The position numbers and the translations under genes are program-made. From Candidatus Norongarragalinales archaeon (GTDB lineage: Archaea; Micrarchaeota; Micrarchaeia; Norongarragalinales; Norongarragalinaceae), in contig JAWABJ010000001.1 of assembly GCA_038884755.1 (NCBI GenBank), positions 251,378 through 315,377 on the forward strand: a DNA stretch of 64,000 nucleotides. The letters run 5' to 3'. Positions 3,816-49,389 of the stretch are shown piece after piece. The stretch's first letter is position 1; every line of letters begins with the position of its first letter. The notes below the pieces were generated by a model. It made no database searches, had not been told where the DNA came from, and worked only from the letters and a program-made list of their open reading frames with translations.

Positions 3816-3840
3816 AATGGGTTGAACGTAGAGTGTTGCC

Positions 3841-4656: not shown

Positions 4657-4714
4657 CGACGTCGCCATGTATTATAAAGCGCCGGAGGCAAATAATTTTT
4701 GAAAGAGGGTTAGA

Positions 4715-5122: not shown

Positions 5123-5161
5123 CAGGATTTTTTGCTTTCTAGAAAAAAATCGTGAGGTGTT

Positions 5162-5500: not shown

Positions 5501-5545
5501 CTGCGAAAAGAAGCTTTTTTCTTTTGCCTTTTTCTTATACCGTTT

Positions 5546-6349: not shown

Positions 6350-6382
6350 CGCGCTGAGTGGTTTTTAACAAAGGGTGGTGCA

Positions 6383-6694: not shown

Positions 6695-6710
6695 AAAGGG
6701 TGCTTTCGAT

Positions 6711-7376: not shown

Positions 7377-7514
7377 AAGCGCTTTCGGGCAAAGTTTTTA
7401 ACTTTTCGCCATCGCGTTATTTAATTTTATCACGCTTTTTGAGTTTGGCGAGAGTTTTTTTTTCCTTAGACTCTCTACTATCGAACCGAAAACCAGACGG
7501 TTGCGTGGAAGAAA

Positions 7515-7652
7515 ATGGACTTGGGACAGGCACTGTTGGGATTAGCAGTGTTCTATTTCCTCGTGTTTTTCGGCGGAGGGCTGTTGGAAAACGACGCTTT
7601 GCTGTTGATGGCTTTGGGCATAGGCGTTTACTACTGGATTACCAACCAGTGA
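7515..7652 (+). CDS. possible small membrane protein (45 aa, two hydrophobic segments)
   Basis: ATG..TGA ORF below the track cutoff, read by hand: MDLGQALLGLAVFYFLVFFGGGLLENDALLLMALGIGVYYWITNQ. It lies in an otherwise empty 290-nt gap. Confidence 0.3.
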   Translation: MDLGQALLGLAVFYFLVFFGGGLLENDALLLMALGIGVYYWITNQ

Positions 7653-7670
7653 AGCTTCGGCTTGCGCAGC

Positions 7671-9359
7671 CTACATTTTTTCCGGAATTTTTATTCCCAA
7701 GAGAGAAAGTCCTTTTTCAATCACGTTGAGCGTTGCCGCAACAATCGCGATGCGCTTTGCTTTCTCCTCGCCTTTGCTCTGCACCACCGGGCATTTTTCG
7801 TAGAATTCGCTGAACGTTGCGGATAGCTTGAGCAAGTAATCGCATATAGCGTGCGGTTCGAAATTTCTTGAAGTTTGCTCTACAACTCGCGGGTATAGCG
7901 AAAGCTGGAACGCGATTTTGCGTTCGGTGTCGTTAAAGCATGCTTTTTCCGGGATTGCTTTTGCTTTCGCTTCCGCCTTGCGCAAGATGTTTTTGGCCCT
8001 GACTGCGGTGTATTGCACGTACGCTCCAGTATCCCCTTCGAAACTCACGGCTTTGGAAGGGTTGAACGTTATGTTTTTTTGATTGCTTACCCTCAGGAAG
8101 CCGAATTTCACGCTTCCAACGCCGATGGTGTTGGCTATCTCGCCGAGGGTTTTTTCCGGAATTCTTTCCTTTTCCCGTATTTCCTCCCTTGCGGCGCGCG
8201 TCGCCTCGTCGAGCAAATCTTTGAGGAACAGCACGTTGCCTTTTCTCGAAGAGAGTTTTCCGCTTTCCAGGTAAATCAGCCCGAAACCAACGTGCCTGAA
8301 GCGGTCGGTGTAACCGCGCCCCAACAACTCCAGTATCTTGTACACTTGCTTGAAATGCATGCTTTGGTCGCTTCCTGTTACTATTATTGAAAGCGCCGGG
8401 TTGTAGTTTTTGAAGCGGCTGTCGGCGAGCGACAAGTCACGCGTGGAGTAAAGCGTGGTTCCGTTCGAACGTAGGATTACCAGGTTGGGAAGGCCGTGTT
8501 CTTCCAAAAACGCGACGAGCTCCCCGTCTTTTTCTACCCGCGCGATGCCTTTTTGTTTGGCTTCCATCGCGAGCTTTTTCCCTTCGATTACGAAGTCGCT
8601 GTCGAAAATTTCTTCGGTGAACGAAACGCCGAGTTTCTCGTAATTCTCTTGCAAAGGCTTTACGCTCAAGTCCCTCACCGCACGGAGTTGTTTCAGTATA
8701 GCTGGGTTGCCGTCTTCCATGCCTTCGAGGATTTCGTGCACTCCCTTGGAGAGGCTTTCGTCTTTTTCTATCTCTTCGTTTATCTTCACGTAGTAGTTCA
8801 AAAGCTGTTTTTCGTCCTTGATTTCGCCGATTTTGTATTTCTTCAATCCCAACAGTAGTTTCGCCACTTGAGTTCCAGCTTCGCACAAGTAGTTGGACGC
8901 GATGACTTCATACCCGCGCTCGCGAAGCACGCGGGCTATCGAATCTCCCAGTATCGTCGAGCGGATGTGCCCCACGTGCATGGGCTTTCCGACATTGGGG
9001 GAGGAGAATTCAACAACCACTTTTTTTCCCTTGCCTTCGGTTCCCTTGCCGAAGTTTTCCCCCAACGCTTCCGCAATCGCACGGGAGTGGTAGTCGTCGT
9101 TCAAGAAAAAGTTGACGTAGCCGTCGACCGCCTCGGTTTTCTCCACGAACTCAATTCCCTTGAGTTCAGCTGCCAGGGTTTTCGCGATTTCGGCCGGACT
9201 TTTCTTCGTCTTTGCCGCCAGGGGAAAGCAGGCGAAAGACAAGTCGCCGTACTCGCGCGAAACTTCTATTTTCACCGCCGTGCTTTCGCCGTAGAGTTTT
9301 TTCACCGCAGCGGCGGCTTTCTTTTCGCACTCCCTGATGGCTTTTTCGAGCAGGAACAT
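7671..9359 (-). CDS. argS: arginine--tRNA ligase
   Basis: HIGH-type motif HVGHIRSTILGD plus a DALR-like C-terminal anticodon-binding region. The ATG at 9359 (MFLLEKAIREC...) is preferred over the upstream track start at 9416. Confidence 0.9.
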   Translation of the reverse strand: MFLLEKAIRECEKKAAAAVKKLYGESTAVKIEVSREYGDLSFACFPLAAKTKKSPAEIAKTLAAELKGIEFVEKTEAVDGYVNFFLNDDYHSRAIAEALGENFGKGTEGKGKKVVVEFSSPNVGKPMHVGHIRSTILGDSIARVLRERGYEVIASNYLCEAGTQVAKLLLGLKKYKIGEIKDEKQLLNYYVKINEEIEKDESLSKGVHEILEGMEDGNPAILKQLRAVRDLSVKPLQENYEKLGVSFTEEIFDSDFVIEGKKLAMEAKQKGIARVEKDGELVAFLEEHGLPNLVILRSNGTTLYSTRDLSLADSRFKNYNPALSIIVTGSDQSMHFKQVYKILELLGRGYTDRFRHVGFGLIYLESGKLSSRKGNVLFLKDLLDEATRAAREEIREKERIPEKTLGEIANTIGVGSVKFGFLRVSNQKNITFNPSKAVSFEGDTGAYVQYTAVRAKNILRKAEAKAKAIPEKACFNDTERKIAFQLSLYPRVVEQTSRNFEPHAICDYLLKLSATFSEFYEKCPVVQSKGEEKAKRIAIVAATLNVIEKGLSLLGIKIPEKM

Positions 9360-9423
9360 GTTTGAAATTATCCGCTCCCACAACTTAAAACAATAGCGTT
9401 CGCACAACCCACTCAAAAAAAGC

Positions 9424-9431
9424 TTATTTAA
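9424..9431 (+). promoter_or_regulatory. candidate TATA box (TTATTTAA) with an A-rich BRE-like tract upstream, for giant gene 1
   Basis: Centred about 34 nt upstream of the ATG at 9462, in the divergent argS / giant-gene intergenic region. Confidence 0.4.
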
Positions 9432-9461
9432 GGACGTTTTACAAAGAAAGTTGATATCTTC

Positions 9462-12400
9462 ATGTACGACGGAAAGGAAAAAGGCGGGGGCAAGACTTTC
9501 TTCGAAAGCGTTGAAGAGTCCTACTATTCATTTTGCGATTCGTTGCAGGAGAAAGGCATTAAGGTTTACGACTGGTTCGTCGACCCTCTCGAGAAAAACG
9601 GCATTCCCTCGCTTCCGGTAATGCTGCTCATTCTGTTGGCAGTGCTTTTGGGCGCAGGGTGGCTTTTGTTTAATCCCGCGCAGGGCTCGGGCGCGTATTC
9701 CTTGAGTGTGAGCATAACCACGGAAAAAGGTCCGGTCGACGACGCGTTTGTTTCTCTTTTCAAAGGCAGTTCGCTCGTGGCGAAGGAAAAAACGCAGGCC
9801 GGGGTGGCTTTGTTCGAAGGGATTGAAGGCGGGGAGTACTCGATTGAAGTTGAGAAAGAGGGTTTCGAGAAAACCGCGCAAAACGTTCTCGTGCCCGACC
9901 AGGATTACGTTGAAATAACGCTTAAGCCCGGAGTTCAAACGCGCACGCAGCCGAACGGCAAAACCACGCCCAATTCCGTGAGTTTCAACAACCTCGACTT
10001 TCCGTCGGGAAGCGGAAAATTGGTTTTGCATATATTCGTAAATAGTCCCGGCGGGCAGAGCTTGAACGCTATTGCAACAGTGTACGACAAGCGCTCGATG
10101 GCTTCGCTTGGAACCGTGAACGTGAAAGACGGGTGGGGCACTTTCGACAGTCTTGAGGAAGGAATGCTGGTTTACGCCGACGTGAGCGCAGAAGGCTTTG
10201 CGCCTTACTCGGGTTCGGAAAACGCCATTACAATTTCCAAAAGCGGAATCAACTCTCTTACCGTAACACTTTCGGCCTTGACCGGCGATTTCGTTGAAAC
10301 TCTTGTTCGCGTGAGCGACTTGCAGGACGCGCCTGTTGCAGGAGCTTCAATCCAAGTTTTTCCCGCTGGCTCTGCAACTCCCTTGACTTTGTCCAATTCG
10401 CTTACTGATTCCAAGGGAATGCTCAAGCTTTTTTTGAATTCTAAAAACGAGTCTAGGTACAAGCTTCTTGCGGGCAAAACCGGTTTCGACGACACGGAAA
10501 GCGAGTGGTTCAAGGCAGGCGAGCCTGTCGCAGTGCGCTTGCACAAGCCCGGAGAATATACCGAAGACGAGAAAAGCCGCTCTTCGGCTTTGAACGCGCT
10601 TGTCACGCAAGAAGGAACGCCGGTGAAAGGGGCGGTAGTAACAATCGCGGGCGAAGGGCTTGTAACGCGCACGAGAGCCACAGACGCGCAGGGCAAGGCT
10701 TCGTTTTTCCTTTTCAACAAGCGCGGGTTGAACGTGGTTGCAAGCGCGGTGAAGGGAAACAGGGCTGCTTCCAAAGAGTTGGCTTTGGACGCTGCCGAAG
10801 TTTCGGTTGAATTGCCTTTGCAGAAAGCTTCGGGAATAGTAACGGTTAAAGCGGTGCGGTATTCCAACCAACAGCATTTGGACGCTTTGTTTGAAGCGCG
10901 AGAAAACAACGCGCTGCTTTCTTCTTGCGCTACCAACGGCGCAAGCCAAGAATGCGATTTGCAGGTTCCGCTCGGAACTACGGTTCAGATAACCGCTTCC
11001 TCGCAAGGCTTCGTTTCGGAAACGCACGAGGTGGTTGTGAACGCGCAGCAAATGTCTTACTCTTTCGCGTTGGTTTCGGAAAACGAAGTCCAATATTCGC
11101 AAATCAAGGACTTTCGCGTTACGCTGGAAGGAAGCAACGAAGCTGTTGAAATCCTTTATCCTGGAAAGCGTTACGAAGCTAAATTCACTTTGTTGGGCAA
11201 AACGCAAAGCACCGCAGACTCGTTCGGGTTTTACTTTTCCGTTGATGCTTCCAAAGCCGCGATAAAGAAAGTCACTCCTCCGTCTGCACCTGCGAAAACC
11301 TTGGGTTCCGCAACTGCCGCTTGCTCTCCAACCCAAATCAACTACAACAACGCTAACGCGGCGTGGGTGGATTTGACTTACCCCGGAAGCAATTCCGTTT
11401 CCAGCAAGAGCGTGAGAGTGGTTTTCGAAGTAAAGCCTTTGCCTGAAGGCGTTTTGGAGGAAAACACGATTGTGAAATACCGCAGTTTTCTCGTGCAAGG
11501 CGGGAAATACTACCGCAATCCTTTGAATGCGAACGACCCGCCTGAAAGGCGTTTTGACGCGAAAACTCCTTTGGCGTCCGGCTGCGATTCGCCGGCAATA
11601 AGCCGCACGTTCGTAATTAACGCCGCGGGCGTGTCGTGCAACAATTTTGCGTGCGTGCAAGTTGCTTTCACTCAACAGGGCGCGCAAAGCGCGAGGGACG
11701 GTTTCGTGGCTAAGGGCGGAGACAATCCCGCGCCAGTGATAATGGCTTTCGAAATTGCCATGCGCACCGCGCAGTTGCAAGGGGAGTTGGGTTTGTCTTT
11801 CAACGCGCCAGGCGGGTTTTTGGGCTTGCTTTCGCTGAAATACCCTGGAATTCCCGACGAGCAGGGCACTCCGCCCGAATTTCCGACTGTGCTCGAGTTC
11901 AACGGCAACGAAGGTTCTTTCTCCGTTTCGGTCGACCACTTGAAGTCTTACGCGAATTTCGAAGCGGGTTTCGTTTTCGGGGGGCAGGTTGCGTTGAAGC
12001 CCTTGGCGAAAACAAACCATTCTCAACTGTTTCTGCAAATTGCAGACAGCTCTAACGGGACTAGGCATACTGCGACCTATGGCGTCGTCACCAATGAAAC
12101 CATAGGCGGCGGGGGCGTTTCGAACGAAAGACTTTCGCTGCTTCCCGGCTCGCAGGATTCTTGCGGCGGCTCGCCTTTCGTAATTTACGACCCGGGCTTG
12201 AGAAACCAGATTTTGCTGAAGCAAACGCGGGATTTCCAGACGCAGTGCGGGACTGTTGAAATGCGCACCACGCCTTTGTTTCCGGCTGACGCGGTTAAAA
12301 TCACTGTCGACACCGCCGAAAGGCTTTTGGTTAACGTGACTGAAGACGACGGTTCGAGCATTTGCTTCGAATCGTGCTCTTTCGGCAGGGACGGTAAGGT

Positions 12401-14978
12401 CGACGAGTCTTCTTGCATACGCGATTTCTCTGCTTTCACTAGAAACGGGACGAGCGTCTTGCGCTACAACCCCGAGGCTTTCGCGCAATGCCGGGCTTTC
12501 CAGGCGATTGCGAACGAAGTGAAGCCCGCGAGGGTTAAGATTGAATTGGGAAGAATTGGAAGCCAATTGAAAACGCCCATAGTGATAGACGTTTCTGGCA
12601 TTTCCGCTTTCGAAGCGCCTTCGCTTTTCATAGGCCCCATCTTCTCGCCGGTTGAAGGTGGGGAGAGTGCGAAACTAGCTTACCCGCAGTTGTGGGCTGT
12701 AACGAACTTGAAGCAAATAGGGTCTAGGAACGTTCAAATGTACCTGGCGCAGCCTTCCGACATCAACCAGCCTATCGAACCGCTTTCTCTCGTCACTTTC
12801 GCGGGGCCGGGAACGCAGACGATTGCGCTGAACCCAAACCCCAAGAGCTTGGTGCTAGTTGCGAAGGAAAACGACGAGATTATTTTCGTGCAAGGCAACC
12901 CGGCCCAAAGCAGGGTAAGCGGGTTGACCGAGTACGCGCAGGAATTCTCGTTGAAAACGCGGTTTTCTGGTGAAAGCACGCAAGAACTGCAAAACCTGCT
13001 TTACTCCAACACCGGCTTCAATCCTGTTGTAGTAAAAAGGATTTTGGAAAAGGCGCTTGCGAAAGCAAAGCAAACCGCGTTCTGGAGGAGCGACGGTTCG
13101 GCGTGGTGCAAAGACACGCCTGTTTGCGTGAACAACAAGTTCCAGCCTTTCGCCGAATGCTGCCGCGCCACGCGCGAAGACTGGCTGGAGGGAAGCGTTT
13201 CTTTCGAGCAGACTACCGAGCCTTGCGCGTTTGAAGACGGAACTCCCGCTAAATTCTGCAACAACCTAGGTTATCCCCAGGAAAGCGGGAATTGGAATTC
13301 CCATCAGTCGAAGTGCGCGGTTCCCATTGATTTTGCTACTTCCGCGCCTTATTGCACGCAACCCGAAGGCTTTGCGCCGTCGACGCAAGTTTACTGCGAC
13401 TCGCGCTGCGCGCCGCGGGAAATAGTAGTGGGCGTTGACGAGAACGAAGAGCCGATTACCGAATTCACCATGGGCTTGGAAGTCGCTTACGGCGATTCTT
13501 ACAAGGAATCGTTCCAGTCGCAAGCCAAATCGTGTTCGGCGGACGCGGCTGCAAAGCAAAATTCCATGAGCAATGTGGACTTTCAGTCTTGCAAGAGCAA
13601 AGGATTCTTGTGCCCGATTTTCACTAAAATCAAAAACTCGGTTGACACGCCGTTGTGCGTGCCTGCTTCGGTTCCGGATTCCCGCGGCTTGATTTCGATA
13701 GATGAGGACGGCGAGGGCCCAACGTGGGAGTACGCTTCGCTTGCAGACGGGAGTTGGAAGTGCCCAGCGCAACACGTTTTTGCGGTCGCCGACGCCTGCT
13801 TCCAGGAGGCTTGCACTACCTACTGCAGCACTTACGGACTTGAAGGCCTTGCGCCCCGATGCGACGAGAGCGGGTACTGCGCGCCCGACGGCACGCGCAC
13901 CGTTCCAAAAGTGATTTACGACGAGGAGGAAGTGGGGCCGCTGGTGGAAGTGCCATTTTCTTCACTGGCAGGCAACGAAACCGACTCTCCCTTGTCTTTC
14001 TTCCCGTCCGCTTACGACCGCGGCTTCGCGTACCGCCTGCCTTTGAACACGCTCATCCAGCCTGACGACGTTGAAATCGAAGAGGCTTTCGCCAACGCCG
14101 GCCTTCCGCTTCCAGACTCTTGCACCGCGCAAGGCAATTTCACTTACCGCGGGTTGTACGACTTGCAGTCTTTGCTTTCGAAAGGCAGCCAAGGGTTTTT
14201 CTGGAACCACGCTTTTTCCGTGTTTTCGATTCCCAACAACGCGTACCACAACGTTCCCTGCGCTTTGGGCTTGGGCGCGGGGCAGACGCAAACGTGCCAC
14301 TTGCTTTTCATCGACCAGCGCGGGCGCAACGACGCGTGCATCAAAAGCATAACTCAATTCGATTATTTTGAAGAAGCGCCGCCAATCGCTTTTGAAAAGC
14401 CGGGCTTTCCGCTTTCGCAAATGAGTTTTGCAGGGCGCACCGGCATTTTCAAGGGAACTAGGCAATTTGCAATAACGCCTACCGGATACGTAGTTGCGTT
14501 GCGCTACGGCTCGAGCACCCGCCAAGTGTTCGACTGGTGGAAGCCCGAAGGTTCTTACGCTGGAGCAATAACGTTCACTTGGTCTAAATGCAAATTCTGG
14601 TGCCAAGTGTGGAAGTTCGTCAAGAGCGTGATTAAGGTCGCGATAGTAGTAGGGCTTATTTACCTTGCAATAAACCCCGGCGCCCTGGGGCCGTTCTTTT
14701 CCAAATTCGGGATTATCAAGTTTATGAAAGCAGGAGGGAATATAGCTGCGCACTACGCTTTCACGTCCGCCGCAGCTGAAACGCTCGTGGTTACCGTGGC
14801 TGCCATGGCGTCTTCCAGCCTGGCCGGGCAAGGCTTGTCCATATACACTCCCGACTTCAGCACCGAAGGGTGCAAGACCGCGGGCGTAGACCAAGGCTGG
14901 AACGAGGCGGAAACGCAAGCGCGTTTGCTCGGGTGCAAGAAAAGCTCTTGGAAAGTCGCGAGCACCACGCCCGCGTAA
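9462..14978 (+). CDS. giant membrane-anchored surface protein, paralog 1 (1838 aa)
   Basis: Conserved N-terminal module, then a TM helix (IPSLPVMLLILLAVLLGAGWLLF). This is followed by CarboxypepD_reg-like ~80-aa repeats (..GEYSIEVEKEGFE..), a conserved core block, a Cys-rich distal half and C-terminal hydrophobic helices. Confidence 0.85.
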   Translation: MYDGKEKGGGKTFFESVEESYYSFCDSLQEKGIKVYDWFVDPLEKNGIPSLPVMLLILLAVLLGAGWLLFNPAQGSGAYSLSVSITTEKGPVDDAFVSLFKGSSLVAKEKTQAGVALFEGIEGGEYSIEVEKEGFEKTAQNVLVPDQDYVEITLKPGVQTRTQPNGKTTPNSVSFNNLDFPSGSGKLVLHIFVNSPGGQSLNAIATVYDKRSMASLGTVNVKDGWGTFDSLEEGMLVYADVSAEGFAPYSGSENAITISKSGINSLTVTLSALTGDFVETLVRVSDLQDAPVAGASIQVFPAGSATPLTLSNSLTDSKGMLKLFLNSKNESRYKLLAGKTGFDDTESEWFKAGEPVAVRLHKPGEYTEDEKSRSSALNALVTQEGTPVKGAVVTIAGEGLVTRTRATDAQGKASFFLFNKRGLNVVASAVKGNRAASKELALDAAEVSVELPLQKASGIVTVKAVRYSNQQHLDALFEARENNALLSSCATNGASQECDLQVPLGTTVQITASSQGFVSETHEVVVNAQQMSYSFALVSENEVQYSQIKDFRVTLEGSNEAVEILYPGKRYEAKFTLLGKTQSTADSFGFYFSVDASKAAIKKVTPPSAPAKTLGSATAACSPTQINYNNANAAWVDLTYPGSNSVSSKSVRVVFEVKPLPEGVLEENTIVKYRSFLVQGGKYYRNPLNANDPPERRFDAKTPLASGCDSPAISRTFVINAAGVSCNNFACVQVAFTQQGAQSARDGFVAKGGDNPAPVIMAFEIAMRTAQLQGELGLSFNAPGGFLGLLSLKYPGIPDEQGTPPEFPTVLEFNGNEGSFSVSVDHLKSYANFEAGFVFGGQVALKPLAKTNHSQLFLQIADSSNGTRHTATYGVVTNETIGGGGVSNERLSLLPGSQDSCGGSPFVIYDPGLRNQILLKQTRDFQTQCGTVEMRTTPLFPADAVKITVDTAERLLVNVTEDDGSSICFESCSFGRDGKVDESSCIRDFSAFTRNGTSVLRYNPEAFAQCRAFQAIANEVKPARVKIELGRIGSQLKTPIVIDVSGISAFEAPSLFIGPIFSPVEGGESAKLAYPQLWAVTNLKQIGSRNVQMYLAQPSDINQPIEPLSLVTFAGPGTQTIALNPNPKSLVLVAKENDEIIFVQGNPAQSRVSGLTEYAQEFSLKTRFSGESTQELQNLLYSNTGFNPVVVKRILEKALAKAKQTAFWRSDGSAWCKDTPVCVNNKFQPFAECCRATREDWLEGSVSFEQTTEPCAFEDGTPAKFCNNLGYPQESGNWNSHQSKCAVPIDFATSAPYCTQPEGFAPSTQVYCDSRCAPREIVVGVDENEEPITEFTMGLEVAYGDSYKESFQSQAKSCSADAAAKQNSMSNVDFQSCKSKGFLCPIFTKIKNSVDTPLCVPASVPDSRGLISIDEDGEGPTWEYASLADGSWKCPAQHVFAVADACFQEACTTYCSTYGLEGLAPRCDESGYCAPDGTRTVPKVIYDEEEVGPLVEVPFSSLAGNETDSPLSFFPSAYDRGFAYRLPLNTLIQPDDVEIEEAFANAGLPLPDSCTAQGNFTYRGLYDLQSLLSKGSQGFFWNHAFSVFSIPNNAYHNVPCALGLGAGQTQTCHLLFIDQRGRNDACIKSITQFDYFEEAPPIAFEKPGFPLSQMSFAGRTGIFKGTRQFAITPTGYVVALRYGSSTRQVFDWWKPEGSYAGAITFTWSKCKFWCQVWKFVKSVIKVAIVVGLIYLAINPGALGPFFSKFGIIKFMKAGGNIAAHYAFTSAAAETLVVTVAAMASSSLAGQGLSIYTPDFSTEGCKTAGVDQGWNEAETQARLLGCKKSSWKVASTTPA
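11157..11880 (+). repeat. conserved core block, copy A (dispersed direct repeat with 16761..17495)
   Basis: Protein segments YPGKRYEAKFTL...DEQGTPP are highly similar in both tandem genes. Identical nucleotide runs include a 70-nt run at 11478..11547, which equals 17082..17151. Confidence 0.8.
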
Positions 14979-14991
14979 AAAATCTTAACCC

Positions 14992-15000
14992 TTTTTTAAT
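14992..15000 (+). promoter_or_regulatory. candidate TATA box (TTTTTTAAT) for giant gene 2
   Basis: About 24 nt upstream of the ATG at 15021, which would give a leaderless or near-leaderless mRNA. Co-transcription with gene 1 is also possible. Confidence 0.3.
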
Positions 15001-15020
15001 CTCTTTTTCTAACGATTTGT

Positions 15021-18000
15021 ATGGAAAACCAGCCGACCGGAGGCGAACAACCGCCTTCCATTCCAGCTAAAAGCAATCAAAAAACTTTGTGGGACAATGT
15101 TGAGGGAAAATACTATTCTTTTTGCGATTGGCTGCAAGACCACGGGCTTCCCATTTACGATTTCTTCGTTTACCCTCTTGAAGACAGGGGCATTCCTTCG
15201 CTCCCGGCTTTCGTGATTATCCTGCTGGCTTTGCTGCTGGGCGCGGGCTGGATTGCGATGGGCGGGCTGTCAGGGCTGGGACAGCAGGCTTACGCCCTTC
15301 AAGTGAGCGTTTACAGCGAGCAAGGTCCCATCGAAGGGGCAATCCTAACGCTGTACAAGGACGGCGGGGTTGTCTCGAAAACAAAGACGAATTCCGACGG
15401 GATTTCTTCTTTTGAAGAACTGCAGGCGGGGGATTACGCGCTGGACGCGGAGAAGGAAGGTTTTGAAACCGCTTCGCTTGCCGTTTCAGTCCCGCGAGAG
15501 TCAAGCGTGGACGTTACGCTGGTTTCAAAACAAAAAATCAGTTTCGAAGGCGGAAAGCAGCCTAACGGAAAGAAAACCGAAGAAGGGCCTTTCAACGAAA
15601 TTGACTACGGCGACTTGTCCCTCAAGATTTTTGTTACTGATATAGCGGGCAACCCTCTTGACGCGACTGCGAACGTTTTCGACAAGAACGCGGGAACGAA
15701 AATAGGGACTGTTATCGTAAGGAACGGCTTCGGCTCGCTCGACGGTTTGGAAGCGGGCATGGTCGTTTACGCGGACGTTTCCGCCCAAGGCCACGTGCCT
15801 TACTTGGGCAAGAACAACGCGACCACGATTTCTGCGGAATCCCCGAATTCCATAAGCGTAAAGCTCTTCAAAATCACGAACGACACCGAGTCGAAAGCCA
15901 CGCTCGTGAAAGTGCGTGATTTGAACGGAACGCCTTTGAACCAGGTTTTGATTAAGGTGTTTCGCAAGGGCAATCCTTTTGCGTTGATCATTCCCAACCA
16001 GTACACGAACGCAACCGGCGAGCTTGCGATAGACTTGAATTCAAGCGGAAATCCCGATTACAAGATTCTCGCTTCCAAAACCCCGTATGTGGATACTGAA
16101 ACAAGCTGGTTCAAGGCCGGAACGAAAGTTGAAATCACTCTCAAGAAGCAAAGCGAAATGAACCAGTCTGACAAAGACAAGGCTTCCAACCTTACCGTGA
16201 CGGTCACGTTCAATGGGAGCGTGGTGGCGAATGCTGCGGTCGCCGTATTCCACGACGAGCTTGCGACGCGCGAAGGGTTTACTAACTCCCAAGGCAAAAT
16301 CAGCTTTTACATCTTGAATTCTCGCGGGCTTACGGTTACGGTGAACGCTTCCAAAAACAACATGGCCGGCTCGAAGCAAGTCGCTTTGGATTCCGAGCAA
16401 GTGCAGGCGAGCGTGGAGCTTGAACGGCGGAAGGCAAGCGTGCGCGTGAGGGCGTTTAACTATTCCAACGGGTTGTTGATTGAAAACGCGGCTTTCGAGG
16501 CGAAAACTGGAGGCGCAACTGTTTCTTCCTGCGCCGTTTCCGCACCCAACTTCGACTGCGTGCTGCAAATAGGCATAGGCTTGAACGCGGAAATAAACGC
16601 TTCCGCCCCCACGTTCGTTTCCGAAACGAAATACTTGTCCGTAAACAACGAAACCATGGCGTTGGACTTCAGCCTGCTTCCTGAATACGCGGTGCAGTCT
16701 TCCCTCATCAAAGATTTCGTGGTGACGCCCGAAGGAGGGAATTCCAACGTAACCACGCTATACCCGGGAAAACGGTATGAGGCTAAGTTTACTCTCATAG
16801 GAAAAACCAACAGTACGAGCGACGAGTTCGGTTTTTATTTCGGCGTTGAAACCGCCCGCGCCGTAATCAAGCGCGTGACGCCGCCTTCAACCCCCACGAA
16901 GACCCTCGGTTCTACGACCGCAGCGTGCAATCCCGTGCAGATAGACTATAATAATGCGAATGCGGCGTGGGTGGATTTGACTTATGCTGGTGCGAATGGC
17001 GTGTCGAGCAAGAGCGTGAGAGTGGTTTTCGAAGTAAAGCCGCTTGGGCAGGGCGTGCAGGAGTCGAACGTTACGCTCCGCTACCGCAGTTTTCTCGTGC
17101 AAGGCGGGAAATACTACCGCAATCCTTTGAATGCGAACGACCCGCCTGAAACGCGCTTCGAGCCGAAAAGCCCGCTTGCCTCTGGATGCAACTCGCCTAC
17201 GTTCAATGCGCTTTACGCAATCAACGGCGTGGGCGTGAGCTGCAGCGAGTACGCTTGCGTGAGCGTGTTGTTCACGCAAAACGGACAGCAGAGCGCGAAA
17301 AACAACTTTACCATGATGAATTTCGGCGAGGGCTCCACGCCTCCGGTCGTAATGCTTTACGAAATCACGTTCAAGAAAGACGTTCGCAACAATCCCGCGG
17401 ACATTTCTTTTTCCTTCAACGCACCCGGCAGTTTCATAGGCTTGGTTTCGGCGAGTTATCCCGACCAGCCCGACGAGCAGGGCACTCCGCCGCAGCCGCC
17501 GAACAAAATAGAGTTTTTGAACGGCACTCCCCAGTCTTTCTCTGCCGATTTAAGCCACTTGAAGCGTTACTCGAACATGGACGAGGGCTTCAAGTTCAAC
17601 GGCGATTTCGTCATAAAGCCCTTGTCTTCCTCGAACGTTAGCGGGGAGGGCATAACTCTGCAACTCGCGCAAGGAGTTGATGCAGTCCGGCACAACGCCC
17701 TTTACAACATTCAAGCCAACGGTTCTCAAGGCGGGTGCACCCAGAATTGTAATGAGCAGGTGGAAAACAGCGCGAAGCTGCAAATGCTTTTGCGCCAGCG
17801 CAGGGACAGCGGCAGTTACATCACCAACCCGCTTTCGCTTTACGCAATCGGCTTGTGCTCTTACGAAAGCATACTGCATTCGTTCCTGCAAGTGGGTTTG
17901 CCAAAGTGCGCCGGTTCGTTCGTGGAATTGAACTACACTGTGACGGTGAACGACACGCAAGGCGGCCGCGGCTGGGTTTTCTTCAACTCCACTGCGAACG

Positions 18001-20678
18001 GCATTACGCTAATACAAAACCTTTCGGTTTCCAAGCAACGCGGGCAGGGCATTAGTTTCGTGCAGGGCTTGGAGAACGGCGTTTACAACGGGTTTTTCAA
18101 CATCAGCCTGAACGACGTGGTTTCAGGCGACATTGTGAACGTTTCGTTCCTCGCGATTACGAGCGAGACTCCCAAGTTTTCCAACTTCAAGTTTGTTTTC
18201 CACAACGGGCTGCCGAACTGGTTCGACAACCAGACCAAGCTCAACGCCATGCCTTACGCCGGCGGGCCGCCGGCGCAGTTCGACTACTTCCCATGCGGCA
18301 AGGCGGCGATTACGCTAGACATTCCGCTGGGCGGGCAGGGGCAGATTGACTTGAACTCGTCTTGCCGGGACGTGATTTTGCAAGTAGACCCAATAATGCC
18401 TTTGGACGCGATTCCCGTGGAATTCACGCAAAGCTTCAGGAGCAACTGCGGAACCTTGCGCCTGAACCGGCTTTTCCCGCCGACCGACGGCTCGCGCGAC
18501 TTGTCGCAGAAGATTCAATTCGACATGAACCTGTACCCGCAAACGGCGTGGATTTCGTTCAACTCGCAAACCGCTGGTTTGCTTAAAGGAAATTGGTTTG
18601 ACACCGACCCGCGCTTTCCCGGGTTAAACTACCTGGGCAAAGCCACTCTTCGCTTGGACTGCTCGCGCTTGCCCAACAAGTTCGTGGACATCGCGATTAC
18701 TGCGAAAGCCGTCGACTCGCGCATTCCGCCCGTGGACGGAAGCTACATTTACTACGAAGGCATGCCCCACCAGCTGATTTATTCGCTGTACAACGGCCAG
18801 CTTCCGCGCGACTTGCTTGTAAGCCCGTCTAACGAAACCACGACGGTAAAAACCCGTACGAGGGCTTTTGACGCCAGCAACCGCGTCAATTACTTCCTCA
18901 TCAACCACCGTTCCACTCCAATCGGCATTTCCATCAAGGGCACGCCGTCGGAGGAAGGCATTGTAATAAACGAGTTCAGCAACCGCTTTGGCTCGGTGTA
19001 TTCTCACATGATTGCGGTTTCCCACTTGGACTTGATTACGCTCGGCAAGTACCTGCATTTCCTGGACTCGCTGCAGCTCTACCCGCCGTCCCAGCAAAAC
19101 GCGATTTGGAATTCCACTTGCCCGTCGATAGACTACGTGAGCGAAGTGACGCACCAGATTCCGCGCAATTTCGTGGAAGAAGTGAAACGCATTTCGCTAA
19201 TCACGGGCTTCCGCCGTTCGCCGCCCCAAAACGGGTATTGGTGCGGGCACCGCAAGGACCGCCCGCAGGGCGAGCGCACTTGCTATCCAACGATTTTGAA
19301 TTGGATGCAGCCGGGAATCAACGAGACGACGCAAACGATTCAATGCCCCGCTCCCGCGTGCTTGCAGGCAAGCGAAGCCGACCCGGACTCTTACACGGCT
19401 GACGCGATAACGCTTTCGGTTTCCCCCCAGCAGCCTTTCCCGCCTGAAGGGCAGCAGTACGCCTTTTCAATCAAGGATTCGCTCGTGTTGAGCGCTGACG
19501 CGAGCGGGCTTCCCGCGGGCACGAACGTTACGGCCGCGAGCGTGGAATTCAAGAGCAAGGAAAGCGTGGACTGCCCGATTGCCGGCGCAAGCTGGTGTTC
19601 GACGACTTTCTTGAACGACGGAGTGGATTTGCAGAAGGACGCGGGCGGGTTGTGGAACATTTCTTACGCCGGCATTTCAAACGCGCAAAACGGCGAGTAC
19701 GCCGTGCGCATCAAAGCGGCAAACGAAACCGGCGGTGTTTTCTTCTACTCGCCTTGGGTTAGGATAATAGTGGAGAACAATGCCGCCGCTTGCTTTGCGT
19801 TGGGCACCCAGCGCGAGAACGTGCCGTTGTGCGCCGAGCCCGTGTGCGACCCGTTCTGCAGGCCGGATGGGACTAAGGAAATCGTGACCAACGCGGGTCC
19901 CGCCTTGAACGACCCGCAATCGTGGTGGCTGAACGACACTGTCCTGGAGTTCGTGCCTGCGGCGGAAGTGGAAGGGATTGAGAATTACGCGGGAATGCCT
20001 TTCGCTTACTTCAGGCAAAAGGGCATTCTGCAAAACGACTTTTCTTTATCCAGTCCGCTAATGCAGTGGAACTGGAACATTGACGACGTTGCAAACGCAG
20101 GATTTACGATTGAAAACGACGCGAAATGCGTGGCTGGAACAGGGTTTTACGAGCTCAAGGCGTCTAGCGCGGACGGCGAGGAATGGAGTTTCAGCGTGGC
20201 GCTTAAGAAACTGCCTTTGAGCGGGTATTTCCTGAACAACGAGCCTTCCGACTCCGACGCGGCGAGGGAAGGGTATATAGACGATTTGCCTCCAAACCCG
20301 CGTTCTGCCGTTTTCGCCAAAGGCCGGGGTTGTGGAATAGGAACAGACCCGGGTTTTGATGATGAAAAGTTTTTGTGCAACGCCAAAAACCTGGTGGTTG
20401 GAAAGCACACGCACCACGCTAGAAACAGCCAAATTCTCGATTGCTTTATCCCGTGCAAGTACAACAACTGCGGGTATTGCATCAACTTCAACCTGCCTTT
20501 CGAGCAGTACGAGTGGCAAGCTTGCCTTCCGCCGGCGAACAGGAACGACTTTTCCAGCTTCCAGGCTTTGAGGCAGGCGTCGACCAACCCCAACCTGCCT
20601 CCTGAATTGCGTTGGGCTTACGGCGTGGGGCAAGAACTGGGCGGCTGTCCGAACGAAGCGACGCGCATTTCCGATTGA
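15021..20678 (+). CDS. giant membrane-anchored surface protein, paralog 2 (1885 aa)
   Basis: Same N-terminal module and TM (IPSLPAFVIILLALLLGAGWIAM), CarboxypepD_reg-like repeats and conserved core block. Many N-x-S/T sequons and a Cys-rich distal half. No C-terminal TM. Confidence 0.85.
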   Translation: MENQPTGGEQPPSIPAKSNQKTLWDNVEGKYYSFCDWLQDHGLPIYDFFVYPLEDRGIPSLPAFVIILLALLLGAGWIAMGGLSGLGQQAYALQVSVYSEQGPIEGAILTLYKDGGVVSKTKTNSDGISSFEELQAGDYALDAEKEGFETASLAVSVPRESSVDVTLVSKQKISFEGGKQPNGKKTEEGPFNEIDYGDLSLKIFVTDIAGNPLDATANVFDKNAGTKIGTVIVRNGFGSLDGLEAGMVVYADVSAQGHVPYLGKNNATTISAESPNSISVKLFKITNDTESKATLVKVRDLNGTPLNQVLIKVFRKGNPFALIIPNQYTNATGELAIDLNSSGNPDYKILASKTPYVDTETSWFKAGTKVEITLKKQSEMNQSDKDKASNLTVTVTFNGSVVANAAVAVFHDELATREGFTNSQGKISFYILNSRGLTVTVNASKNNMAGSKQVALDSEQVQASVELERRKASVRVRAFNYSNGLLIENAAFEAKTGGATVSSCAVSAPNFDCVLQIGIGLNAEINASAPTFVSETKYLSVNNETMALDFSLLPEYAVQSSLIKDFVVTPEGGNSNVTTLYPGKRYEAKFTLIGKTNSTSDEFGFYFGVETARAVIKRVTPPSTPTKTLGSTTAACNPVQIDYNNANAAWVDLTYAGANGVSSKSVRVVFEVKPLGQGVQESNVTLRYRSFLVQGGKYYRNPLNANDPPETRFEPKSPLASGCNSPTFNALYAINGVGVSCSEYACVSVLFTQNGQQSAKNNFTMMNFGEGSTPPVVMLYEITFKKDVRNNPADISFSFNAPGSFIGLVSASYPDQPDEQGTPPQPPNKIEFLNGTPQSFSADLSHLKRYSNMDEGFKFNGDFVIKPLSSSNVSGEGITLQLAQGVDAVRHNALYNIQANGSQGGCTQNCNEQVENSAKLQMLLRQRRDSGSYITNPLSLYAIGLCSYESILHSFLQVGLPKCAGSFVELNYTVTVNDTQGGRGWVFFNSTANGITLIQNLSVSKQRGQGISFVQGLENGVYNGFFNISLNDVVSGDIVNVSFLAITSETPKFSNFKFVFHNGLPNWFDNQTKLNAMPYAGGPPAQFDYFPCGKAAITLDIPLGGQGQIDLNSSCRDVILQVDPIMPLDAIPVEFTQSFRSNCGTLRLNRLFPPTDGSRDLSQKIQFDMNLYPQTAWISFNSQTAGLLKGNWFDTDPRFPGLNYLGKATLRLDCSRLPNKFVDIAITAKAVDSRIPPVDGSYIYYEGMPHQLIYSLYNGQLPRDLLVSPSNETTTVKTRTRAFDASNRVNYFLINHRSTPIGISIKGTPSEEGIVINEFSNRFGSVYSHMIAVSHLDLITLGKYLHFLDSLQLYPPSQQNAIWNSTCPSIDYVSEVTHQIPRNFVEEVKRISLITGFRRSPPQNGYWCGHRKDRPQGERTCYPTILNWMQPGINETTQTIQCPAPACLQASEADPDSYTADAITLSVSPQQPFPPEGQQYAFSIKDSLVLSADASGLPAGTNVTAASVEFKSKESVDCPIAGASWCSTTFLNDGVDLQKDAGGLWNISYAGISNAQNGEYAVRIKAANETGGVFFYSPWVRIIVENNAAACFALGTQRENVPLCAEPVCDPFCRPDGTKEIVTNAGPALNDPQSWWLNDTVLEFVPAAEVEGIENYAGMPFAYFRQKGILQNDFSLSSPLMQWNWNIDDVANAGFTIENDAKCVAGTGFYELKASSADGEEWSFSVALKKLPLSGYFLNNEPSDSDAAREGYIDDLPPNPRSAVFAKGRGCGIGTDPGFDDEKFLCNAKNLVVGKHTHHARNSQILDCFIPCKYNNCGYCINFNLPFEQYEWQACLPPANRNDFSSFQALRQASTNPNLPPELRWAYGVGQELGGCPNEATRISD
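16761..17495 (+). repeat. conserved core block, copy B (pairs with 11157..11880)
   Basis: See copy A. Shared identical runs include AGCAAGAGCGTGAGAGTGGTTTTCGAAGTAAAGCC and CCCGACGAGCAGGGCACTCCGCC. Confidence 0.8.
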
Positions 20679-20713: not shown

Positions 20714-20787
20714 AGTCAGAAGCTACCTCGGTCATCACAAGTCAGACTGGGACGGTGTCATCACGAAATAGGATTTGTGCAAAGCGC

Positions 20788-20796
20788 TTTTATTAA
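20788..20796 (+). promoter_or_regulatory. candidate TATA box (TTTTATTAA) for the RelA/SpoT-like gene
   Basis: About 35 nt upstream of the ATG at 20829, which supports that start over the track start at 20775. Confidence 0.35.
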
Positions 20797-20828
20797 GATT
20801 GAGTTCAATTGTTTTTATAGCTGGTTTA

Positions 20829-22376
20829 ATGGAAGAAGCTGCTGTTTCGAAAAGGTTTTCACAGAAGTTCGGCGCGCAAATTAGCTTTGCTAGAACGCTT
20901 TATGCCGGCCTCAAAGGAGAAAAGAATTTTGATTTCAACCTTGCCCTTGCGAATTACTTGCATTCCCACCAAGCGGACGATCAGCTTGTTTTAAGCGCTT
21001 TACTAGCCGGTCTGAGTAAAAAAGAGCTGGAGGAAATCAAAAAAAAAGGTGTGGCCAAGCACGTGTTGGAGCAGCACGAGAAAGAATGGGGTTTGGACAG
21101 GAAAGCAGTTAAAGATTTCAGTGAAAACTTGAAAGAGGCTTTAGAGATTATTGCAAGCTATATACAGTTGAAAGCAAATCCGGAAATGGATGCAAACGCG
21201 CATTTTGCAGCCGCGCTTGAAGCCCCCAAGCTACGCGCTTCGTTGTTGCGCGCTGCGGTATTGAACTTCGAACTGGAAAAACCATCAAAACAATCTGCTT
21301 TGCACGTGGAAGTGGCTGAACACGTTTACATTCCGTGGTTGAACCTCTTGGGTTTGGTTGACATGAGCAACGAACTCGGAGAAAAAGTTTTGAAAATCAA
21401 AGACCCTTTAGCATACGAAAAACTCTTTCAACACTTGGAAACAATGCCTGTCAGTAAACGTCCGTTCGGCAAAATGATTGCCTCCTTGAAAAAGAAAATC
21501 AGTAGGCTGGGGTTGGAGATTGAAGACGTTCAGTTCAGGAGAAAATCGATTTACAGCATTTACCAAAAACTCAAGGCTTACGGCTGTCCCGTTGGAAATC
21601 CAGCCTACGACCACGACCCTCGACTTTTAGACGATTTGTATGGGTTGAGGGTTGTTTTGAAGGCTGACGAGACTGAAAGCGAAAGCGAACAAGTTGCAAA
21701 GGCAAGACGAGTGTTGGATGTAGTACGCTCTTCATTCGAAATGCCTAAGGAGGCAAGGATAGACGAGTATGTCGCTGAAAAAGCAAAACCAAGCGGCTAT
21801 AAGGCTATTCACACGCCGGTTATTGGACCGCAGAATTTGCCGATAGAAATTCAAACAGTAACCAAACCATGGCACGCTGCGAACGAAGCTGGTCTTTCTT
21901 CCCATTTTTTCTACAAACTTTCTAAAGCTGTTAGCAGTCCTTTGAGGCAGGTGTTGGTTCGCATTCAAGAAGAGTTGAAGCGGGGCGTGCCGATAGAACG
22001 AGTTTTCAGGAGCATAGGCAAGCCGTTGATTTACGTGACAACCGACCGGTTTGGTCCGCAAGACCACGCTCTTCCTGCAGGTTCTACTCCCTTGGACTTG
22101 TGGTACGCGCATGGTTTCCGCAAGAAGTACGAAGAAAAAATGAAGGGAAAAATATTTTTCGAAACCGTAATGGTAAACGGTGAAACCGTTCCACTAACTA
22201 CTATCCTGAAGCCAGGCGATCACGTGCGTTTTGACGTGAGCGGAAGCCCGCCGAAAGTAGAGCTTATTGACCGGTTTGCGAACGAAGTAGCAACGCCTGA
22301 AGCGAGGGAAGGGTTGTGGAAGTTGAGGAGAAAACTGGGAAAATGGCGTTGGCTCAGGCGAAAGGAAGAGAGCTAA
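20829..22376 (+). CDS. RelA/SpoT homolog (RSH): degenerate HD domain, (p)ppGpp-synthetase domain and TGS domain
   Basis: Synthetase motifs RRKSIYSIYQKL, DDLYGLRVVL, SGYKAIHT, IEIQTVT and HFFYK. TGS-like region IYVTTDRFG...ALPAGSTPLDLWYA...VNGETVPLTTILKPGDHVRF. The N-terminal HD-domain remnant has LLAGL where the HD dyad is expected. Confidence 0.8.
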   Translation: MEEAAVSKRFSQKFGAQISFARTLYAGLKGEKNFDFNLALANYLHSHQADDQLVLSALLAGLSKKELEEIKKKGVAKHVLEQHEKEWGLDRKAVKDFSENLKEALEIIASYIQLKANPEMDANAHFAAALEAPKLRASLLRAAVLNFELEKPSKQSALHVEVAEHVYIPWLNLLGLVDMSNELGEKVLKIKDPLAYEKLFQHLETMPVSKRPFGKMIASLKKKISRLGLEIEDVQFRRKSIYSIYQKLKAYGCPVGNPAYDHDPRLLDDLYGLRVVLKADETESESEQVAKARRVLDVVRSSFEMPKEARIDEYVAEKAKPSGYKAIHTPVIGPQNLPIEIQTVTKPWHAANEAGLSSHFFYKLSKAVSSPLRQVLVRIQEELKRGVPIERVFRSIGKPLIYVTTDRFGPQDHALPAGSTPLDLWYAHGFRKKYEEKMKGKIFFETVMVNGETVPLTTILKPGDHVRFDVSGSPPKVELIDRFANEVATPEAREGLWKLRRKLGKWRWLRRKEES

Positions 22377-22436: not shown

Positions 22437-23006
22437 TTGCAAAAAGGTGGTTTGTTGGCTTTAGCGTGGATTTTGGTCGGAATAATCGCGATAATCCTGG
22501 TTTTCGTCGTTTTGCTTTACAACGGGCTTGTCCGTGCGAGGAACATGGTGGACAACGCGTGGTCGCAAATCGACGTGCAACTGAAGAAAAGAAGCGACTT
22601 GATTCCCAACCTCGTCGAGACAGTGAAAGGCTACGCCAAGCACGAGCGCGAAGCGTTCAAGGAAGTTACCGAAGCGAGAACGAAGTTTTTGAATGCGAAA
22701 ACAATCGGAGAGAAAGCGAGGGCGAGCAACATGATTACCGACGCTTTGAAAAGCATTTTTGCTGTCGCAGAAGCCTATCCGCAATTGCGCGCGAGCGAAA
22801 ACTTCAAGCACTTGCAGGAAGAGTTGAGCGACATCGAGGGGAAAATAGCTTACGCCAGGCAATTCTACAACGACTCCGTTCTCGAGTACAACAATTCCAT
22901 CCAAGTGTTCCCCAACAGTCTTGTGGCTGGACCGTTCGGCTTTTCCAAGCGCGAGTTTTTCGAAGTCAGCGTGGAAGAGCGCAAGAGCGTCAAGGTAAAA
23001 TTTTGA
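22437..23006 (+). CDS. lemA: LemA family protein
   Basis: 189 aa with an N-terminal TM, then LYNGLVRARNMVDNAWSQIDVQLKKRSDLIPNLVETVKGYAKHE, the typical LemA signature. Confidence 0.88.
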   Translation: MQKGGLLALAWILVGIIAIILVFVVLLYNGLVRARNMVDNAWSQIDVQLKKRSDLIPNLVETVKGYAKHEREAFKEVTEARTKFLNAKTIGEKARASNMITDALKSIFAVAEAYPQLRASENFKHLQEELSDIEGKIAYARQFYNDSVLEYNNSIQVFPNSLVAGPFGFSKREFFEVSVEERKSVKVKF

Positions 23007-23071
23007 ACTTTTTATTTTGTAGGAAAAAGGGTAGAGGGGAGAAACGCAGTTTCTTCCTCTGGTGATTTTCA

Positions 23072-49285: not shown

Positions 49286-49389
49286 TTTTTTATCGAAAAC
49301 GCTTACGGAAAAAGAAATTAAAACGCTTTTGTTGCACATACTACCCTGCAGTTGCGGCGATGGTCTAGTGGCATGATGCGACCTTCCCA

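Follow-up and report, generated by a model that had tools for sequence, protein, structure and literature searches.

Two giant stalked proteins, presumably of the cell surface, encoded in tandem in a genome of the Micrarchaeota

What does a DPANN archaeon do with two giant proteins encoded side by side? We address this question for a stretch of 64,000 nucleotides (nt), hereafter the window, taken from contig JAWABJ010000001.1 of GenBank assembly GCA_038884755.1 (positions 251,378 to 315,377, forward strand), with Ca. Norongarragalinales, Micrarchaeota (DPANN), as closest named relative. A preceding inspection of the letters (the original prediction) had reported two paralogous open reading frames (ORFs) on the same strand, 42 nt apart. 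Both lie exactly where it placed them, with products of 1838 amino acids (aa; type A, or A) and 1885 aa (type B, or B; Table 1), and all four peptide strings that it quoted occur in the translations. That A and B are real genes follows from ORF lengths beyond chance and from the conservation of their products in other genomes. As computed from coordinates, the four giant ORFs of the window occupy 38.6% of it, in line with the share of about 39% given before.

We hold it to be reasonably probable that A and B are an envelope-spanning, membrane-anchored, stalked pair of a Micrarchaeota-specific superfamily and serve in cell contact. According to this proposal, an N-terminal module of ~45 residues (N-module) would reside in, or act from, the cytoplasm, and the helix behind it would anchor the protein in the cell's own membrane. 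Five prealbumin-like domains would make up a stalk of fixed length, roughly 20 nm, by which an all-beta Ig-like core and a disulfide-rich head of ~950 residues would be held at or beyond the S-layer. A and B would bear different, individually conserved heads, and A would also be fastened by a C-terminal hydrophobic hairpin. Acting together at the surface, they would contact or recognise another cell; for a symbiont with a reduced genome such as this one, that cell is most likely the host. The proposal draws on the architecture of the proteins, on an all-beta core model with matches to Ig-like adhesins, on the Cys-rich distal parts and on the sequons of B; it further draws on the conservation of the pair beside the ArgRS gene, on tandem and triple giants elsewhere, on the homogenisation of the core and on the restriction of the family to Micrarchaeota. 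Gene structure, paralogy, domain order, hydrophobic segments, the pattern of conservation, synteny and family distribution are shown here; on that basis we infer the topology, the stalk length in nanometres, the A-B pairing and a function in contact.

True paralogy of the two genes is confirmed by BLASTP, which aligns A with B at 47% identity over 935 positions (A 7-924, B 17-929) and gives no significant match beyond A 924 / B 929. Both proteins show the domain order originally described, i.e., a hydrophilic N-terminus (the N-module), a hydrophobic helix, prealbumin-like domains, five in number, a conserved core and a Cys-rich distal half. Identity between the paralogs is ~51% in the anchor region, ~42% in the stalk and 59% in the core (A 541-880), the conserved block of the original description, while the heads are unalignable.

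The stalk contains the carboxypeptidase-regulatory-like repeats that had been claimed for it. CarboxypepD_reg (PF13620) exceeds the Pfam gathering cut-off of 32.3 bits in both proteins, with 51.5 bits in A (3 stretches) and 56.2 bits in B (2 stretches); this membership names the stalk domain alone and not the whole protein. Weaker Pfam matches to Big_1, SpaA, SdrD_B and PEGA fall into the same region, where SpaA reaches 25.3 bits in B (cut-off 23.1) and Big_1 and PEGA stay sub-threshold in A. A hairpin signature of the GEYSIEVEKEGF type can be read from the sequence of A near aa 124, 234, 331, 422 and 505, in keeping with five units between aa ~77 and 540, and A thereby possesses the tandem beta-sandwich stalk that is typical of fibrillar adhesins. 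Sequence and profile searches of the PDB gave matches confined to the stalk, namely to transthyretin- or CarboxypepD_reg-like domains, and CarboxypepD_reg was matched in 20 of 20 distant family members tested. Membership in the bacterial alpha-2-macroglobulins was considered and rejected: 8 of 20 relatives have no more than weak bMG3/MG4 matches in their stalks, and A and B contain neither the C[GLAS]EQ motif nor a Pfam match to A2M or TED.

The core begins at residue 541 in A, which is 471 aa past the helix, and at residue 556 in B. Both positions fit the distance of 450-600 aa between helix and core that was found in 97 of 102 family members (a statistic subject to a ranking bias, see below), the total length of which varies nearly threefold, from 1300 to 3700 aa. 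A beta-sandwich domain measures ~4 nm by our estimate, and five of them would span about the width of the pseudoperiplasm, which in Ca. Micrarchaeum harzensis is 20-25 nm wide under the S-layer. With a stalk of ~20 nm, core and head would therefore come to lie at or beyond the S-layer.

For the core of B (556-900), AlphaFold2 (AF2) returned an all-beta model of about three sub-domains with a predicted local distance difference test (pLDDT) of ~60-88. Foldseek against the PDB matched this model to tandem Ig-like modules (SdrE, SdrD, cohesin dyads, integrin legs and Gram-positive pilins) at root-mean-square deviations (RMSD) of 13-20 Å and template-modelling scores of 0.25-0.3; as judged from the predicted structure, the resemblance to fibrillar-adhesin modules is generic only. 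Foldseek matches in BFVD, with RMSD of 30-50 Å, are meaningless and were discarded. Core identity between A and B amounts to 54-59% within the same genome and to 41-44% across lineages (W/L1 versus L2), whichever types are compared. Together with a 116-nt tract of 87% nucleotide identity and an excess of identical codons among identical amino acids (75% and 71% in two core bins, the first at aa 661-720, versus 41% expected from codon usage), this suggests that the core has been homogenised within genomes by gene conversion between the tandem paralogs. Conversion is possibly maintained since both cores must fit the same partner.

The distal halves carry most of the cysteines, 34 out of 41 in A and 28 out of 35 in B being located past residue 900, and many of these are invariant among relatives, in the A head across 6 sequences. 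The distal half had been described as rich in Cys and in N-x-S/T sequons, which is correct with respect to Cys. Sequons are enriched in B only (34 observed versus 19.3 +/- 3.9 in shuffles), spread over the whole protein and not clustered distally; A has 8 where 12.4 are expected. Similarly, the distal half is divergent, as had been stated, between the paralogs, and well conserved, not fast-evolving, between orthologs: in the most distant ortholog pair the heads of B and A retain 59% and 49% identity, respectively, compared with 39-46% in the stalks, and the distal half of B is its best-conserved part (59% versus ~40% in the stalk). This conservation indicates specialised and not hypervariable distal halves. 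The two heads are probably very old homologs. We put this no higher because a comparison of the two head profiles with hhalign is not significant by itself (P = 0.021), and homology is argued from three colinear weak matches and from the bridging proteins P0009 and P0010, in which a B-type insertion of ~175 aa after the core is followed by an A-type head. For P0009, the alignment covers B 21-1133 on the one hand and A 1-875 plus A 891-1415 on the other. A hidden Markov model (HMM) of the type A head finds matches in ~25 other superfamily clusters, including Ca. Norongarragalina meridionalis; the type B head is rarer, its HMM matching P0026, P0156 and P0123, the last of which is the first giant gene of locus L007 and adjoins ArgRS.

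Core and heads of A and B gave no match in Pfam, NCBIfam or the PDB (single-sequence and profile PDB searches), and no match to A or B was found in NCBIfam, PADLOC or PHROGs. Hence, no characterised family in these collections takes in the full-length proteins, and nothing beyond the stalk domains is recognised. None of the findings that would have overturned the original prediction was made. Motif scans of A and B for LPxTG and RGD were negative as well.

The N-module, ~45 aa in length, has the family consensus ..FYxxLEDKYYxFxDxLxxKGIPVYxFFVxPIExRGIPSFP and is directly followed by the helix. Across 28 diverse family sequences, positions E18, E44, G47, P49, S50 and P52 do not vary; among 10-28 family members, Y22 is invariant as well. 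A module of the GIPS(F/L)P type directly before the helix is present in A, B and P0002-P0011, and the strict motif G[IVL]P[SA]xP in 94 of 160 retrieved proteins; Pfam and NCBIfam contain no match to it. In Kyte-Doolittle profiles (19-residue windows), each protein has one N-terminal transmembrane (TM)-like peak, at 51-69 in A (2.59) and at 61-79 in B (2.48), so that a hydrophobic helix is available in both as candidate surface anchor. The full length of B shows no further TM-like peak. The helix is followed by short linkers of small residues, e.g., GSGA|Y in A. The C-terminal part would lie outside the cell, to judge from its content of Cys, sequons and beta-sandwich domains only.

A alone has an extra C-terminal hydrophobic segment, as originally noted, with a TM-like peak at 1719-1737 (2.25) that has no counterpart in B. 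Its C-terminus consists of a DWWxPEG motif, a strongly hydrophobic helix with ~100 aa beyond it, a variable hydrophobic stretch and a 50-aa tail that hardly varies and contains two Cys; in an AF2 model of low confidence, helices occupy A 1711-1737 and 1761-1787. The hydrophobic region is kept in the A orthologs, and Gly/Ala-rich segments occur at the same place in distant A-type heads. Since both flanks look extracellular (conserved Cys), a hairpin is suggested. Insertion of the helix in the cell's own membrane would be the simplest reading, as it is sufficiently hydrophobic. Processing by an archaeosortase (PGF-CTERM) or sortase (LPXTG) was rejected: there is no LPxTG, a single PGF is found internally at A 1647 and at B 1777, and a C-terminal tripartite signal is missing.

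Two orthologous lineages emerge from an all-against-all BLAST, type A with and type B without the C-terminal hydrophobic region. Type A comprises P0002 (68% identity) as well as P0003 and P0004 (44%), type B comprises P0006 (78%), P0007 and P0008 (72%) and the product of L002 3629-9238 (50%). The pair recurs in independent assemblies from ENA (L001), Logan (L002) and NCBI (L003), which excludes an assembly artefact as the origin of the tandem. In L001, a divergently oriented ArgRS gene is situated upstream, followed by the two giants and a RelA_SpoT gene. L002 has the same ArgRS flank and the order B, a sigma-70-like gene on the other strand (9243-9890, -) and A, and L003, from a metagenome-assembled genome, is a short contig with the two giants only. 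The distant locus L007 has, after the same TIM/ArgRS position, a protein of 3689 aa whose distal part matches the type B head, and next a giant of 2307 aa. Two or three giants in a cluster also occur in L004, L005, L012, L014 and L016.

Word-based searches yielded about ten relatives only, and an exhaustive search with a profile of the N-terminal half far more: 3948 proteins passed E <= 1e-3, and 398 cluster representatives reached E <= 1e-30. In the top 150, most proteins have 1200-3700 aa, and their alignments begin at residue ~5 and extend to profile position ~750. Micrarchaeota are the source of each of the 12 named clusters looked up and of each of the 11 loci of a GTDB species scan, and the superfamily appears to be confined to this group. 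Named members are annotated as 'hypothetical protein' or 'carboxypeptidase regulatory-like domain protein', one with a Kazal-domain name. An N-terminal TM-like helix is present in 131 of the 139 long members and C-terminal TM-like segments in 24; their median number of Cys is 41, only 9 of them in the first half. Pfam detects stalk-type domains only in 20 distant members, plus one cupredoxin and one Kazal domain. Our literature searches found no description of the A/B family. It would rank with the giant stalked surface proteins of reduced-genome symbionts; new are the Micrarchaeota-specific family, the N-module and the core.

Among known systems, the bacterial fibrillar adhesins (the MSCRAMMs SdrD/SdrE, Gram-positive pilins, Bap/SiiE-like proteins) resemble A and B in a long stalk of repeated Ig- or prealbumin-like domains, a distal head and, as predicted for A and B, a single membrane or wall anchor. 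The best Foldseek matches of the core include SdrE, SdrD and pilins, besides cohesin dyads and integrin legs, and weak SdrD_B, SpaA and Big_1 matches fall in the stalk. A and B differ in being archaeal, in having an N-terminal helix with the N-module instead of LPXTG or type I or type V secretion signals, in the fixed and not variable length of the stalk, and in heads without recognisable adhesive domain. In other DPANN archaea and in bacteria of the Candidate Phyla Radiation, giant surface proteins (e.g., SPEARE of Ca. Nanohaloarchaeum antarcticus) are likewise very large and take up a big share of a reduced genome. A role in host interaction has been proposed for such proteins, and SPEARE carries protease, adhesion and nuclease-type domains. 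No sequence relationship was found, domains of these kinds are undetectable in A and B, and the A/B family appears to be restricted to Micrarchaeota. For A and B, host attachment, which the original prediction had named as plausible besides cell-cell attachment, is what we infer.

Several points weigh against a role in cell contact or against the topology assumed for it. The heads, conserved among orthologs and not hypervariable, would fit a conserved housekeeping role in the envelope at least as well as host recognition. Neither head has a recognisable adhesive or ligand-binding domain, and AF2 performed poorly on both from shallow alignments (pLDDT 38 for the A head with a 6-sequence alignment, which is unusable, and ~30 for the B head). 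The stalk-length statistic is biased, as hits were ranked by a profile that itself contains such a stalk. With regard to topology, the 'type II' arrangement of the original prediction has its hydrophobic helix; the region before this helix is net acidic, so that the positive-inside rule gives no help and the presumed orientation lacks backing by charge bias. With small residues after it, the helix may be subject to cleavage by signal peptidase. Finally, some Norongarragalinales may be less host-dependent, the abstract of PMC12892359 speaking generally of 'certain lineages'.

The main rival, which we regard as unlikely, is an envelope scaffold or S-layer anchor: the pair would serve as pillars, anchored in the membrane, that keep the S-layer at a constant distance much as SlaB does, and not as a device for host contact. 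The tightly conserved stalk length, the synteny of the pair beside ArgRS across a deep divergence of Micrarchaeota and the conservation of the heads among orthologs would all agree with such pillars. Moreover, the authors of the S-layer study pointed out that a clear anchor is missing from SLP_Mh, which might rely on a second, TM-containing stalk protein. SLP_Mh (Micr_00292) is the demonstrated S-layer protein of Micrarchaeota, of 101 kDa, the S_layer_N (PF05123) type and a low Cys content. It belongs to the envelope, as is proposed for A and B, has like them an N-terminal hydrophobic segment that may be either kept or cleaved, and is probably glycosylated; A and B have ~200 kDa instead of 101 kDa and 35-41 Cys. 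A and B themselves were rejected as S-layer proteins of this type, since S_layer_N and S_layer_C gave no match at E <= 1 (Pfam) or E <= 0.1 (NCBIfam). The surface lattice, which the original prediction had also suggested, is thus weakened, the demonstrated protein being a different one. The Sulfolobales proteins SlaA and SlaB are likewise co-encoded; both belong to the envelope, and one of them supplies a membrane-anchored stalk across the pseudoperiplasm, as A and B would. SlaB, however, is C-terminally anchored and has ~400-475 aa, SlaA and SlaB are not paralogs, and no sequence similarity was found, whereas A and B both bear the same predicted N-terminal anchor, stalk and core. A Cys-rich head of 950 aa is also far bigger than an anchor requires, at least four paralogs are encoded within 64 kb, the heads are very different across the superfamily, and Pfam and NCBIfam revealed no similarity to SlaB or S_layer_N families.

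To a second rival we give still less credence, namely that N-module and helix constitute an extended, cleavable signal peptide for giant exported proteins. In bacteria, ESPR (PF13018), YSIRK (PF04650) and KxYKxGKxW (PF19258) are conserved modules N-terminal to the export segment of very large surface proteins. If A and B were processed similarly, B would be released or held via A only, and A would be a C-terminally anchored type I protein, like archaeal surface glycoproteins. A conserved module immediately before the sole hydrophobic segment of giant proteins, the small-residue linkers behind the helix and the presence of a C-terminal anchor in A only are consistent with this. However, an n-region of 45-60 aa goes far beyond known archaeal Sec signals, a consistent AxA-like site is lacking among family members, and C-terminal TM segments are present in only 24 of the 139 long members, so that the remainder would all be released. 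As to the bacterial modules, none has a Pfam match in A or B, and the N-module differs from them in sequence, in its greater length (~45 aa) and in the domain of life.

A far-reaching extension of the contact proposal, and a decidedly speculative one, would make the A/B pair the core of a host-contact apparatus. The N-module would then be a new archaeal targeting or assembly signal, the stalk would carry the heads through the S-layer, and the hairpin would engage the own or the host membrane; the pair could correspond to the large complex in the envelope of a Micrarchaeon at which host nanotubes dock. Cryo-electron tomography of another Micrarchaeon (ARM-1) showed envelope complexes at host junctions.

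Related to this, and quite improbable in our view, is an inter-membrane tether, in which the A-type Gly/Ala-rich hairpin would enter the host membrane and link the cells, or the pair would be part of an envelope complex at Micrarchaeota-host junctions. The Gly/Ala-rich segment after DWWxPDG and before the Cys-pair tail recurs in distant A-type heads, both hairpin flanks look extracellular, and the tomograms of ARM-1 contain a 21-nm envelope barrel that docks host nanotubes. The first helix in A (FVKSVIKVAIVVGLIYLAI, Kyte-Doolittle 2.25), on the other hand, is hydrophobic enough for integration into the own membrane during export, and some members have 4-5 C-terminal hydrophobic peaks, which is typical of a resident membrane domain. 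Similarity in fold or sequence to known fusogens is absent; HAP2 appears in the Foldseek search of the core model only at probability 0.30 and in a low-confidence region.

That the distal halves, either secreted or displayed, act on the host envelope as enzymes or toxins, with the remainder as delivery stalk, is very improbable. The heads are large, conserved and unannotated, and one family member with Kazal inhibitor domains and another with a cupredoxin demonstrate that heads can host functional modules; those of A and B have no match in Pfam, NCBIfam, PADLOC, PHROGs or the PDB, and scans for HExxH, GxSxG, Walker A and thioester motifs were negative throughout both proteins, in agreement with the original statement that no catalytic motif is recognised. 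A type IV pilin-like protein, cut by prepilin peptidase after the invariant Gly of RG|IPSxP so that the helix becomes a pilin-like N-terminus, is scarcely credible: G47 is invariant, preceded by R46 in at least 90% of sequences and located directly before the hydrophobic stretch, yet A has N and not R/K at -2, there are no pilus genes near the locus, and the invariant Pro at +2 and the conserved leader of 45-60 aa do not fit the archaeal class III signal (FlaFind pattern), in which a short basic leader precedes a [KR]-[GA] cleavage site and the residues at +1 to +3, ahead of the hydrophobic stretch, are small or hydrophobic.

The proposal of a surface-exposed contact pair bears on the molecular basis of host recognition and attachment in DPANN archaea, and the literature consulted for comparison identifies no symbiont-side contact protein for Micrarchaeota. 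The locus now stands for a defined Micrarchaeota family with an N-terminal motif, a fixed-length stalk, an all-beta core, at least two head types and a syntenic pair by ArgRS. It provides targets for antibodies, proteomics, density assignment in cryo-electron tomography and structure prediction in cultured Micrarchaeota. If the N-module indeed serves as a dedicated signal for export or assembly, archaea would possess an equivalent of the specialised signal peptides with which giant bacterial adhesins are equipped.

Table 1. Positions in the window of the giant genes, of the parts of their products and of local DNA features.
Feature	Position	Strand	Basis
TTATTTAA, possible archaeal TATA-like box	9424-9431	+	~34 nt 5' of type A start codon; read from sequence
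Type A giant gene	9462-14978	+	ORF, ATG start, 1838 aa product
A: conserved N-terminal module, aa 11-50 (..FFESVEESYYSFCDSLQEKGIKVYDWFVDPLEKNGIPS)	9492-9611	+	Invariant columns across family
A: N-terminal hydrophobic helix, aa 51-70, predicted signal-anchor	9612-9671	+	Kyte-Doolittle peak
A: stalk, five prealbumin-like beta-sandwich domains, aa 77-540	9690-11081	+	CarboxypepD_reg match
A: conserved core, aa 541-880	11082-12101	+	59% identity to B core
A core: candidate gene-conversion tract	11478-11593	+	87% nucleotide identity to B 17082-17197 (116 nt; repeat search)
A/B core: second tract	11792-11875 vs 17408-17491	+	75% nucleotide identity
A: Cys-rich type A distal module, aa 881-1715	12102-14606	+	Cys distribution; head HMM
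A: C-terminal hydrophobic hairpin region, aa 1716-1788	14607-14825	+	After conserved DWWxPEG motif; hydropathy
A: conserved C-terminal tail with Cys pair (GQGLSIY..GCKTAGVDQGWNEAETQARLLGCK)	14826-14975	+	Near-identical in four orthologs
A-B intergenic spacer, 42 nt	14979-15020	+	T-runs and TTTTTTAA at 14992-14999
Type B giant gene	15021-20678	+	ORF, ATG start, 1885 aa product
B: N-terminal module, aa 21-60, and hydrophobic helix, aa 61-80	15081-15260	+	Hydropathy, family conservation
B: stalk, prealbumin-like beta-sandwich domains, aa 89-555	15285-16685	+	CarboxypepD_reg, SpaA matches
B: conserved core, aa 556-902	16686-17726	+	AF2 model; core-profile hmmsearch
B-specific insertion past core, about aa 903-1077 (~175 aa), absent from A	17727-18251	+	P0009 alignment
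B: Cys-rich, sequon-rich type B distal module, about aa 1078-1885	18252-20675	+	Ortholog conservation; head HMM
Third member, 3040 aa	50339-59461	-	Shortened N-module, TM, CarboxypepD_reg repeats, core-like motifs
Fourth member, >=1494 aa	59515-64000	-	Last stalk domain and family core; core HMM E = 8e-19

At the DNA level, TTATTTAA may possibly act as TATA-like box for A, and the T-runs and TTTTTTAA of the spacer may possibly represent a terminator and/or a TATA-like box for B. The window lies on a contig of 714 kb, in a part of the DPANN genome that is devoted to housekeeping. The flanks of the giant genes contain archaeal housekeeping genes for MCM, a RIO kinase, TIM, ArgRS, an H+-PPase and subunits of an A-type ATPase, furthermore for a synthetase of the TyrRS/TrpRS type, an AdoHcy hydrolase and aIF5A. 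Horizontal acquisition of the giant genes is unsupported, as their G+C content (0.53-0.57) is only slightly above that of the flanks (0.50-0.53) and these carry housekeeping genes.

Some neighbouring ORFs deserve mention in their own right. Directly 3' of the type B gene, a 533-aa ORF (20775-22376, +) has a RelA_SpoT domain (4.5e-17), which is unusual for an archaeon. It is followed by a LemA gene (22437-23006, +; 5.7e-61) and an M48 peptidase gene; an overlapping ORF of 203 aa (22461-23072, -) has no match and is probably spurious. A sigma-70-like ORF, in an archaeal window, extends over 32146-33141 (+), with matches to Sigma70_r2 (1.7e-12), r3 and r4, and a 308-aa ORF (28257-29183, -) has a weak match to a LigD primase-polymerase-like domain (1.1e-4), below the cut-off. 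The 64-kb window contains no tRNA gene and no Rfam family at the gathering threshold.

The second giant locus of the window, reported originally on the opposite strand, does encode superfamily members there, and all four giants of the window belong to one superfamily, in two tandem pairs. The 1460-aa ORF that had been listed is, however, not a complete gene: the frame is open to base 64000, and the fourth member is thus cut N-terminally by the edge of the window. The 3040-aa giant contains a cupredoxin-like insert in its core-like region (aa 656-739; Cupredoxin_1 0.001, halocyanin 0.0019) and a long, hydrophobic C-terminal region rich in Gly, Ala and Pro (aa ~2400-2800).

A SpoIIM-domain membrane protein is encoded near this locus (48410-49633, -), and a SpoIIM gene in L004 (2708-3544) adjoins the giant cluster of Ca. 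Norongarragalina meridionalis, so that the association is maybe conserved. A small ORF without Pfam match (49788-50342, -; 184 aa) and one of 202 aa in L005 (9342-9950) each abut a giant of ~3000 aa with a 4-nt overlap. In L004, a 1949-aa NosD/beta-helix repeat protein (3586-9435) is located just 5' of three consecutive giants, which points to a larger island of surface proteins.

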